DNA of 64,000 nucleotides from Ignavibacteriota bacterium (GTDB lineage: Bacteria > Bacteroidota > Ignavibacteria > UBA10030 > UBA6906). The stretch is from positions 1,280,001-1,344,000 of the forward strand of contig CAWDEM010000004.1 in NCBI GenBank assembly GCA_963801355.1, given 5' to 3'. The notes under the pieces were generated by a model. The model made no database searches. It saw only the letters and a list, made by a program, of their open reading frames with translations, and was not told the DNA's origin. Both the position numbers and the translations under genes were made by a program. Shown here one piece after another: positions 55,697 through 55,930 of the stretch (position 1 is the first letter of the stretch; the number at the start of each line of letters is the position of its first letter).

Positions 55697-55930
55697 CTAC
55701 CCTCAGGTAGGGCAGGCCGCAGCCTCCCCGACGGCGCCGGTACCGTTCTCGATTTGCGAGATATCTTCGTCATTGTCCTGCAGGTTTTTCATGATCGCGC
55801 AATTGACGCGGCTTTCCATCTGCAGCGACTGACGTGACGATACACAGCTGGTGAGAAACGAGGAAAAAAGGAGGGAAATGACGATGAGAAGAATTGGACT
55901 GATGGTGTGTGATTCCCTGCCGCGAGCCAT
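55697..55930 (-). CDS. Small lipoprotein, candidate selenoprotein with C-terminal CPTUG (77 aa)
   Basis: SD AAGGGGAG, lipobox LTSC, ends GAVGEAAACPT-TGA-GGG-TAG. Confidence 0.75.

Follow-up and report, generated by a model that had tools for sequence, protein, structure and literature searches.

Whether the TGA triplet that closes a small open reading frame of an Ignavibacteriota genome is an ordinary stop or a selenocysteine (Sec) codon, and what the resulting protein would do beside the outer-membrane barrel gene that follows it, is the question raised by the locus described here. The locus lies in a stretch of 64,000 nucleotides (contig CAWDEM010000004.1), hereafter the window, which carries the following elements around the codon:

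55697..55930, minus strand: gene for a small lipoprotein, its UGA very probably read as Sec (homologues end at the same site; TGA-GGG-stop kept at 25 of 25 loci)
55703..55705, minus strand: the UGA codon, very probably read as Sec at residue 76 (invariant in 25 of 25 rows; Sec machinery in the genome)
55675..55692, minus strand: SECIS-like hairpin with a 5-7-bp stem and the loop A-G-G-U (folding, covariation, loop position of fdhF, bSECIS consensus)
55694..55713, minus strand: second perfect hairpin, of 8 bp, with the UGA in its 4-nt loop (fold prediction)

The open reading frame starts with an ATG at 55930 on the minus strand and, when the UGA is read as Sec, encodes a precursor of 77 amino acids. 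Its lipobox L-T-S-C occupies residues 26-29 (55855-55844), with Cys29 as the lipidation cysteine, and a further cysteine, Cys44, stands in a V-N-C context, after which come the acidic residues D-N-D-E-D and a linker rich in Gly and Ala. The 3' end reads C73-P-T, TGA (55705-55703), GGG (55702-55700) and TAG (55699-55697), and the tail with Sec is A-A-A-C-P-T-U-G (C73-P-T-U76-G77). Reading of the UGA as Sec would thus yield a mature lipopeptide of about 49 residues that ends in C-P-T-U-G. All the features that a first-pass annotation had listed for this frame (lipobox, VNC, acidic Gly/Ala linker, CPT-TGA-GGG-TAG end and hairpin) are present on the minus strand. Alignment of 27 sequences revealed 18 invariant positions along the mature peptide; the internal cysteine, which the first-pass annotation had listed, is not conserved, and its position holds C, S, N or D in homologues.

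Public data contain at least 200 clusters of this protein at 90% identity, every retrieved one annotated as a truncated hypothetical protein. Among 123 retrieved homologues, 122 stop two residues past the tail cysteine, with C-P-T as the end in 121 and C-Y-S in one, the remaining sequence being a frameshifted read. Searches with the small protein returned noise only from Pfam (PLA2_B, E = 0.12) and from NCBIfam (TIGR04313, E = 0.47), and no match was obtained to the models of SaoC (NF040734), KCU-star (NF033934) or UXX-star (NF041114 and NF041211) in NCBIfam release 20 at E <= 0.1, with C substituted for U.

We compared codons and hairpin across the window and 24 related loci (25 rows, 20 distinct sequences), a DNA sample that covers the A-A-C-P-T branch of the small-lipoprotein family. 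TGA follows C-P-T in all 25 rows (20 distinct) and is in turn followed by GGG in all 25. A stop codon comes next throughout, but its identity varies (TAG 21, TAA 2, TGA 2), and the third base of the Thr codon before the TGA takes all four values (C 9, G 13, A 2, T 1). TAA or TAG after C-P-T occurs in no homologue, and the Gly codon and hairpin highlighted by the first-pass annotation are both kept; the pattern that the annotation had named as refuting its reading is thus not what the loci show. The frame beyond the UGA consists of a single codon (GGG, 25 of 25) before the variable stop, which agrees with Sec but is too little sequence to be judged for conservation. Since the next gene may also make use of the bases 3' of the UGA, their invariance is not explained by Sec alone, and the invariant third base of GGG points to an RNA-level constraint as well. 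The classical confirmation of selenocysteine, a homologous protein in which Cys replaces Sec, came from 0 of 123 proteins in two word-indexed searches, and Cys occupied the Sec position in 0 of 10 matches among 1.84 billion representatives; the closest approach to such a form is the second cysteine of the DUF4266 C-x-C tail, which has no confident alignment with the Sec position.

The perfect hairpin reported 10 nt after the TGA was confirmed and is kept across related loci. It spans 18 nt and contains seven perfect pairs and a 4-nt loop, A-G-G-U, at nt 21-24 as counted from the U of the UGA (G-G-U at nt 22-24). Because its first base lies 10 nt past the UGA, the hairpin sits behind the true stop and over the start codon of the next gene, the barrel-gene ATG (55692) being inside the stem. 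Folded alone, the window hairpin has a free energy of -7.7 kcal/mol (z = -4.0; 1 of 200 shuffles as stable), and its 51-nt context one of -20.4 kcal/mol; the upper stem alone reaches -4.7 to -7.1 kcal/mol at four other loci, to be compared with a limit of -7.5 that was set for a whole bSECIS. The five core pairs are intact in 19 of 20 distinct rows, the 3' arm being lost at one locus (L020). Covariation is evident, with 13 cells changed on both sides and an observed score that 0 of 500 shuffles reached; pair 31-40 is UA in 10 rows and CG in 9, and pair 30-41 is UA in 15, CG in 3 and UG in one. At another locus (L022) the barrel occurs without the small ORF, and no such hairpin was found there. 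For the hairpin that holds the UGA in its loop, no covariation support was obtained (83.8% of cells paired; 159 of 500 shuffles score as high). A predicted lower stem of the window hairpin was, by eye, not kept at other loci and was therefore not counted.

The hairpin is more than a chance feature. Across the window, 17 of 2129 TGA triplets (0.8%) precede a qualifying hairpin (16-24 nt past the TGA, perfect stem of at least 5 bp, loop of 4-5 nt with G[G/U]), and the loop starts with A-G-[G/U]-U in four of these 17, which belong to selD, two thioredoxin-like genes and the small ORF. The bSECIS consensus, in the available part of its source (PMC13188914), comprises a loop of 3-9 nt, a stem of 4-16 bp, a minimum free energy of at most -7.5 and a G within the first two positions of the loop, with G or U next, at 16-37 nt from the UGA. 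The window hairpin agrees with the consensus in that form, with the loop A-G-G-U, a stem of 5-7 bp and a UGA-to-loop spacing of 17 nt. An Rfam scan of positions 53000-57000 at E <= 10 identified no SECIS family, its sole match being a chance snoRNA-type hit at 55751-55799.

The machinery for Sec insertion is encoded close by, including two genes in the window:

60671..60765, minus strand: tRNA-Sec gene (Rfam RF01852, 67.9 bits, over the gathering score)
60826..61923, minus strand: selD with an in-frame UGA (61842-61840), the in-genome SECIS control (hairpin loop A-G-G-U-U)

The genome also encodes selB (359.5 bits) and selA (584.4 bits), and tRNA-Sec, selA, selB and selD all fall within about 12 kb of the small ORF. 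SelB scored over the cut-off in 8 of 8 genomes with the module and in 0 of 5 same-family relatives without it. The proximity recurs: in the window, about 5 kb separate the module from tRNA-Sec and selD; at locus L022 it lies directly after selD, and in the genome of L018 it shares a contig with selB, about 1.5 kb from the L018 locus. Searches for the barrel in 301 genomes of the phylum matched strongly in the genome itself only (three weak DUF3570 matches besides), and those in 401 genomes of the class gave two, the second being the source of locus L021. Together, codon conservation, the hairpin and the Sec machinery support the original reading: the TGA very probably encodes selenocysteine, giving a C-x-x-U-G end, and the comparative data suggest that the small lipoprotein probably represents a new selenoprotein family.

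The small ORF had been described as leading an operon of three genes. It is indeed the first gene, but the operon consists of five co-oriented, tightly spaced genes on the minus strand (55930 to 50941), and four of the five have an in-frame UGA. The order small gene, barrel, TlpA is kept at all loci long enough to show it. The four genes downstream are:

54664..55692, minus strand: 16-stranded outer-membrane beta-barrel, a remote DUF3570 homologue by profile comparison, without flavinylation motifs (AlphaFold2, hhalign)
53863..54651, minus strand: TlpA/AhpC-TSA-like lipoprotein with an in-frame UGA (54201-54199) in U-M-D-C (UxxC)
51525..53822, minus strand: propeller of the BNR/sortilin type that carries a type-IX secretion tail and has a UGA in frame at 52562-52560 (residue 421) (read-through verified; Pfam matches)
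50941..51528, minus strand: second thioredoxin-like protein with an in-frame UGA (51318-51316) in U-R-E-C

The SECIS of the TlpA-like gene has the loop A-G-U-U-G at nt 23-27 and is kept at related loci. In the second thioredoxin-like gene, whose ATG overlaps the propeller stop, a hairpin loop A-G-U-U-U begins 16 nt past the UGA.

Gene clusters that combine DUF4266 and DUF3570 with a thioredoxin of the TlpA kind, and in many cases with ApbE and DsbD as well, are described in the available text of Meheust et al. (eLife 2021, PMC8238504). Such systems resemble the present module in pairing a small secreted lipoprotein, with a redox-looking C-terminal cysteine motif, with a barrel and a TlpA-like thioredoxin, and the sequences examined bear out the earlier statement that DUF4266 lipoproteins end in a Gly-rich C-G-C tail beside DUF3570 barrels, with G-G-C-G-C-N, -AK, -TK or -G as the observed ends. 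The likeness between the small protein and DUF4266 is partial: it holds for the genomic setting and may extend, by hhalign, to the N-terminal half, but falls below the Pfam model. Pfam DUF4266 (PF14086; gathering score 27 bits) gave no match to the small protein at E <= 1, and no match over the cut-off in the whole genome, while matching 68 of 301 genomes of the phylum. With hhalign, a narrow alignment of the small protein reached 12% (P = 0.0024) against DUF4266 and a wider one 76.8% (E = 2e-5), in the N-terminal half only, from the lipobox to N-x-P-I-M. For the barrel, Pfam DUF3570 (PF12094) scored 9.1 bits (E = 0.66; 12 bits in the genome search), below the cut-off of 25, and hhalign reached 94.3% (E = 9.9e-8) over 169 columns; the barrel profile also matches three DUF3570 genes, with E values of 5e-5 to 6e-4. 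As judged by these profile comparisons, the small protein would be a remote, selenium-using counterpart of DUF4266, and its partner barrel is a remote DUF3570 homologue.

The module departs from the canonical systems in several respects. Its tail reads C-x-x-U-G where the canonical one reads G-G-C-G-C-N/AK, neither small protein nor barrel is matched by the Pfam models, and its thioredoxin-like partners and propeller are themselves selenoproteins. Moreover, 13 of 14 barrels of the family lack the [S/T]GA[S/T] motif, which 5 of 8 examined DUF3570 sequences possess, and the ApbE model has no match in the genome, which is 100% complete. With neither flavin sites in the barrel nor ApbE in the genome, the electron-transfer cofactor of the canonical system is missing. 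The G-T-G-A-V segment of the small peptide was considered as a flavinylation site and rejected, given that its acceptor position is V, I, A or S without a conserved S/T and that the genome lacks ApbE. The selenium module and the DUF4266/DUF3570 system were not found together in any of 6 genomes tested. The module is probably a new variant of the DUF4266/DUF3570/TlpA system, with a function that we infer.

The AlphaFold2 model of the barrel has 16 strands (mean pLDDT 73.8), and its top PDB matches are polysaccharide-export barrels and porins of 16-18 strands. The first-pass annotation had envisaged a tethered arm threading into this barrel. Co-folding of the lipopeptide with the product of 54664..55692 placed the peptide in the lumen with a median score of 0.69 (runs of 0.52, 0.69 and 0.73), as opposed to 0.00 for the best control; 116 of 157 solved complexes attain the score mark used, as do 2 of 215 mismatched pairs. 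The runs have no less than 64% of their contacts in common, partner pLDDT is 58 or higher, and contacts fall on alternate residues of many barrel strands, with peptide residues 46-47 at the short-turn end and 57-62 at the long-loop end. The model suggests that the lipopeptide probably sits inside the barrel lumen, in keeping with the threading part of the earlier proposal; the swinging of the arm and the transport of reducing equivalents or Se/S across the outer membrane are the speculative part of that proposal.

We consider it likely, overall, that the locus encodes a Sec-tailed lipopeptide that is housed in the lumen of its partner barrel and bears a redox tail, within an operon of selenoproteins. 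UGA decoding would be directed by the short hairpin 10 nt downstream. The conserved middle of the lipopeptide (residues ~41-62) is predicted by the co-fold to occupy the lumen of the 16-strand barrel, which would be a distant DUF3570 relative after loss of its flavin attachment sites; the lipid anchor would lie at the periplasmic mouth, and the C-x-x-U-G tail at or past the outer mouth. The Cys73/Sec76 pair would cycle between a selenenylsulfide and its reduced form. Upkeep of the pair would fall to the operon's own thioredoxin-like UxxC selenoproteins, and its target would be either the propeller selenoprotein displayed at the surface or a substrate outside the cell. The direction of electron flow, the surface exposure and the substrate of the tail are the parts of this account that we infer. 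A tail at the outer face would be beyond the direct reach of periplasmic reductases, a point that counts against it. An extended form of the account, which we regard as tentative and rather doubtful, has the lipopeptide threaded from the periplasmic leaflet to the surface, such that Sec would be displayed outside the cell on a flexible tail and, with the UxxC reductases and the propeller, would form a cofactor-free selenol/thiol relay replacing the DUF3570 flavin. As the SECIS covers the barrel start codon, barrel synthesis would in that form be coupled to Sec insertion in the plug.

The position of the hairpin invites two readings, one in which Sec is not inserted and one in which the peptide is of secondary importance. 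If the TGA were an ordinary stop, the protein would end in C-P-T, and the conserved bases would represent the barrel ribosome-binding site and a start-hiding hairpin for translational coupling. A G-A-G-G-G lies 7 nt before the barrel ATG, which is inside the stem; the invariant third base of GGG is expected of an RNA signal rather than of a Gly codon, and neither a Cys-for-Sec homologue nor an Rfam match was found. We nevertheless judge an ordinary stop to be quite improbable, for it offers no account of the following: in all 25 rows a stop that varies among TAG, TAA and TGA lies one codon past the TGA; neither TAA nor TAG ever appears as the first stop, although all three codons end canonical DUF4266 genes (TGA 6, TAA 5, TAG 1; n = 12); the loop A-G-[G/U]-N lies at the fdhF distance and resembles those of selD and of the genome's thioredoxin-like selenoprotein genes; and the gene is confined to genomes with SelB (8 of 8). 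It would also leave the tail with one cysteine and no conserved redox partner for it, given the variability at Cys44. Alternatively, the small ORF might be a selenium-sensing leader in which passage of the ribosome through the UGA melts the hairpin and lets the barrel start, the barrel staying silent without selenium and the peptide being secondary. The hairpin does hold the barrel ATG, the true stop and the UGA lie 7 and 13 nt before it, and the other operon products need selenium. Even so, a mere leader would have no need of a lipobox or of a mature peptide with 18 invariant positions in 27 sequences, and the modelled co-fold favours a specific fit to the barrel. A sensing role is very improbable as a replacement for the redox account, alongside which it can hold.

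A different reading accepts Sec insertion and gives the module a role in handling selenium, another chalcogen or a soft metal, whereby the tail would capture the element at the cell surface and hand it on, by way of the barrel, to the periplasmic UxxC proteins, feeding SelD. The repeated location of the module beside sel genes (in the window, at L022 and in the genome of L018) is consistent with this, as are the barrel without flavin sites, the genome without ApbE and the suggestion, in the available text of a recent review (PMC13188914), that Sec may be a metal ligand in several C-terminal-Sec families. The sel linkage, however, may reflect only a horizontally moved island of Sec machinery and its clients, none of 5 relatives from the same family having SelB; a UxxC thioredoxin fold is typical of redox enzymes, and the operon has no selenium transporter. 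We deem element handling unlikely and retain the redox-tail account.

This account invites comparison with better-known systems. Mammalian thioredoxin reductase is a flavoenzyme with a C-terminal G-C-U-G tail in which Sec is penultimate. The first-pass annotation had drawn this parallel, which is only an analogy: in both cases a penultimate Sec is followed by Gly in a presumably flexible tail with a nearby cysteine. The pair here is nonetheless C-x-x-U and not C-U, the carrier is a 49-residue lipopeptide and not a flavoprotein, and decoding is bacterial rather than eukaryotic. Lipoproteins housed in outer-membrane barrels are exemplified by LptE in LptD and RcsF in porins, where, as predicted here, a lipoprotein segment occupies a beta-barrel lumen; the present case differs in lacking any relation in sequence or fold, in the lodging of a short unfolded peptide instead of a folded domain and in having a C-terminal tail as the functional group. 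The hairpin resembles the SECIS of E. coli fdhF (NC_000913.3) in lying right after the UGA, with G-G-U at nt 22-24 from the U, and differs from it in its much shorter stem (5-7 bp), without a predicted bulged U, and in falling outside the frame that it serves, over the start of the next gene. SaoC, a protein ending in Cys-Cys-COOH or Cys-Sec-COOH, has, in the part of its description available, a UGA-UAG end and a decoding hairpin with a 7-bp stem and a G-G-U loop, located behind the stop and immediately ahead of the following gene (Haft and Gwadz, bioRxiv 10.1101/2022.07.06.499078). As far as the accessible text of these sources goes, SaoC and the KCU-star and UXX-star proteins (both in PMC13188914) are likewise bacterial, with Sec at or near the last residue. 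No sequence relation to them was found, and the small protein differs in its C-x-x-U-G motif and in being a lipoprotein with a partner barrel. SaoC, as described there, has Cys-containing homologues, whereas none were found for the small lipoprotein family.

In the available part of a 2026 review (PMC13188914), this family is absent from the 119 selenoprotein families tabulated, and it is also absent from NCBIfam. Having no Cys form among the sequences found, it is unusual among selenoprotein families, and its hairpin offers a natural case of a bacterial SECIS behind a stop codon and over the start of the next gene. The relationship would tie the DUF4266/DUF3570/TlpA systems, so far uncharacterised, to a version that uses selenium and no flavin, and this link suggests that the working part of both may be a barrel-held C-terminal dithiol or selenol-thiol tail. 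With Sec needed by four of its five genes, the operon would provide a good handle on extracytoplasmic selenium biochemistry.

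The small lipoprotein gene opens a five-gene operon (intergenic gaps of 4, 12, 40 and -4 nt) and encodes a signal peptide with an L-T-S-C lipobox (Cys29), an acidic middle, a Gly/Ala-rich stretch and a C-terminal C73-P-T end, after which TGA, GGG and TAG follow in order; after four intervening bases the outer-membrane β-barrel gene starts with its ATG (55692). The first-pass annotation had listed these features along with an internal cysteine; all are present in the sequence, but that cysteine (Cys44), although found in the window, is not conserved among homologues. The relevant features, all on the minus strand, are as follows.

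ATG at 55930 to TGA at 55705-55703, minus strand: small ORF, as read from the sequence
55713-55694, minus strand: second hairpin, perfect 8 bp, GC-rich, with the small-ORF TGA inside its 4-nt loop
55692-55675 (18 nt), minus strand: SECIS-like hairpin of seven pairs, loop A-G-G-U, opening with the barrel ATG
51525-53822, minus strand: propeller; two BNR/sortilin ORFs forming one 765-aa type-IX-secreted protein joined by a TGA, read-through verified
51528-50941, minus strand: fifth operon gene, a 195-aa thioredoxin/AhpC-TSA-like protein absent as a separate entry from the ORF list
60671-60765, minus strand: tRNA-Sec gene (67.9 bits)
60671-63996 and beyond, minus strand: selenocysteine gene block with tRNA-Sec, selD and two middle ORFs, then selB and selA just past the window end

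In-frame TGA codons occur in four of the five operon genes. The third gene encodes an AhpC/TSA-type thioredoxin fold in which the TGA interruption gives U-x-x-C, and the propeller TGA is residue 421, within G-G-G-U-G. The fifth gene, whose ATG overlaps the propeller stop, surfaced in a background scan of the window for TGA plus hairpin; its in-frame TGA (51318-51316) yields U-R-E-C, a motif shared by L022, a related locus, and is followed after 16 nt by a hairpin with loop A-G-U-U-U. Given these TGA-interrupted genes, together with tRNA-Sec, selB, selA and a selD that has its own in-frame TGA, the organism reads UGA as selenocysteine. By eye, the middle ORFs of the selenocysteine block resemble a BadF/BcrA-type ATPase (61911-62732) and a 2-hydroxyacyl-CoA dehydratase (62713-63996). 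Immediately ahead of the operon, the 300-nt divergent intergenic region contains an 11-nt unit repeated four times in tandem (56020-56064), which may constitute a regulator-binding array. At four other loci (L019, L027, L035 and L041) the barrel is followed by a tandem pair of TlpA-like genes, each split in two by tblastn where the window's UGA sits.

A word-indexed protein search returned 43 small-protein homologues, all of which (43/43) end in C-P-T. Seven species-genome and 18 metagenome loci provided 24 small ORFs with DNA, which were aligned by codon with that of the window (25 rows, 20 distinct; the A-A-C-P-T branch of the family). TGA follows C-P-T in 25/25 rows, GGG follows TGA in 25/25, and the next triplet is always a stop (25/25) of variable type (TAG in 21, TAA in 2, TGA in 2). 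All four bases occur at the third position of the preceding Thr codon, and stop usage in 12 canonical DUF4266 genes is TGA 6, TAA 5 and TAG 1. Because the TGA is invariant and the following stop codon varies, the first "stop" is fixed as TGA and the second behaves as a genuine stop would. Profile searching against 1.84 billion representatives yielded 10 matches, and after a second word-indexed search (120 of 200 proteins listed) the family set comprised 123 proteins; among the matches listed, 121 end in C-P-T, one in C-Y-S and one is a frameshifted read, and none (0/123) has Cys at the Sec position, leaving the data searched without a Cys homologue.

The five-pair core of the SECIS-like hairpin is intact in 19 of the 20 distinct sequences. 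Two pairs alternate between U-A and C-G, 13 cells of the core show both-sided change, and the covariation score was reached by 0/500 shuffles. The pattern that the first-pass annotation had named as evidence against its reading, TAA or TAG after C-P-T with neither a following Gly nor a hairpin conserved, does not occur in the aligned DNA. The one exception among the 20, locus L020, has neither the 3' arm nor the beginning of the barrel gene. Hairpin arm and barrel signal peptide are gone at 2970-3015, although the sister locus L037 is intact, and the gap reflects a deletion or else an error of assembly. The loop begins 17 nt after the UGA (A-G-G-C, A-G-G-G or A-G-U-U at other loci), and spacing and loop fit the bacterial SECIS consensus as given in a 2026 review (PMC13188914). 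The fdhF loop of E. coli (NC_000913.3), G-G-U-C, covers nt 22-25, so that G-G-U falls at nt 22-24 in fdhF and the small ORF alike, and SaoC (bioRxiv 10.1101/2022.07.06.499078) provides a published precedent for a C-terminal Sec with a hairpin behind the stop. Within the window, a comparable hairpin follows 17 of 2129 TGA triplets, and the loops of four of these, in selD, two thioredoxin-like genes and the small ORF, begin A-G-[G/U]-U.

Among the caveats on the Sec reading, alongside the absence of a Cys homologue from the data searched and the one family branch that the aligned DNA covers, the upper stem on its own is weaker in four loci outside the window (-4.7 to -7.1 kcal/mol), and the hairpin region had no match in Rfam. 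The second hairpin is paired in 83.8% of cells across loci, without compensatory changes. As further caveats, the nucleotides that follow the UGA may at the same time form the ribosome-binding site of the barrel gene, and the third base of GGG never varies. At L022 (1854-3981), a barrel and a TlpA-like selenoprotein gene lie directly after selD without the small lipoprotein gene, and the barrel start has neither such a hairpin nor the N-terminal M-x-Q-V-K extension; the hairpin is therefore tied to the UGA of the small ORF rather than to the barrel gene itself. The small-ORF observation is real and non-random, and comparative and structural-RNA evidence, all drawn from sequence, strongly supports a UGA that is very probably read as selenocysteine.

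The predicted barrel model (16 strands, mean pLDDT 73.8) resembles polysaccharide-export barrels and porins. When the mature peptide (residues 29-75) was co-folded with the barrel in its mature form, the pair passed its controls with a median score of 0.69 (runs 0.52, 0.69 and 0.73; best control 0.00), a mark reached by 116/157 solved complexes versus 2/215 mismatched pairs, with at least 64% of contacts common to the runs and partner pLDDT of at least 58. We know of no like complex, so the pass seems unlikely to reflect a structure already familiar to the predictor. Contacts fall on alternate residues across many strands, placing the co-folded peptide in the barrel lumen; on the strand map of the model, residues 46-47 contact strand ends beside short turns and residues 57-62 those beside long loops. 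In outer-membrane barrels the periplasmic face is usually the one that bears the termini and the short turns, and by this rule the lipid anchor would be periplasmic. In this model, the last 13-15 residues, with C-x-x-U-G, would emerge at the outer mouth of the barrel. The earlier proposal that the tail threads into the barrel thereby gains in silico support; what the small protein does there we can only infer.

Cys73 and Sec76 would form a selenenylsulfide switch held inside the barrel and serviced by the two UxxC proteins, its target being the type-IX-secreted propeller selenoprotein or an outside substrate. DsbD-type membrane proteins are encoded elsewhere in the genome. Access of a periplasmic reductase to an outward-facing tail poses a difficulty for the proposed servicing, and handling of selenium or a metal by the module, consistent with its repeated linkage to sel genes, is a live alternative to the redox switch. 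Translation of the barrel may, in addition, depend on Sec insertion, since only 7 nt separate the true stop from the barrel ATG, within reach of the hairpin.

Pfam and NCBIfam scans left the small protein unrecognised. The barrel profile weakly matched DUF3570 proteins encoded beside DUF4266, TlpA and ApbE genes, and profile-profile comparison of the barrel family with DUF3570 gave 94.3% (E = 1e-7). For the small protein and DUF4266 the probability was 12% with a narrow and 76.8% with a wider alignment, running from the lipobox as far as the N-x-P-I-M motif. The DUF4266 likeness suggested by the first-pass annotation is probably one of remote homology over this stretch rather than membership, and profile evidence places the barrel as a remote homologue, not a member, of DUF3570. 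Meheust et al. (PMC8238504) showed that ApbE attaches flavin to DUF3570 at [S/T]GA[S/T] sites; this motif is missing from 13/14 barrels of the window's type, and this genome has no ApbE. DUF4266 occurs in 68/301 genomes of the phylum, including 5/6 same-family relatives, and is absent from this genome and five others with the Sec-type module. In same-family relatives without SelB (L080-L084), the canonical DUF4266/DUF3570 pair is flanked on one side by a lipoprotein of 750 aa whose middle domain is hydrazine-synthase-alpha-like and on the other by a type-IX-secreted NHL/FlgD-Ig protein of 800 aa, and two small barrels precede this neighbourhood. SelB is encoded in 8/8 module-carrying genomes versus 0/5 same-family relatives. 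With flavin motif, ApbE and DUF4266 lacking and SelB present, the Sec-type module looks like a selenium-dependent, flavin-free replacement of the canonical DUF4266/DUF3570/TlpA system, and module and Sec machinery appear to be carried together on an island.
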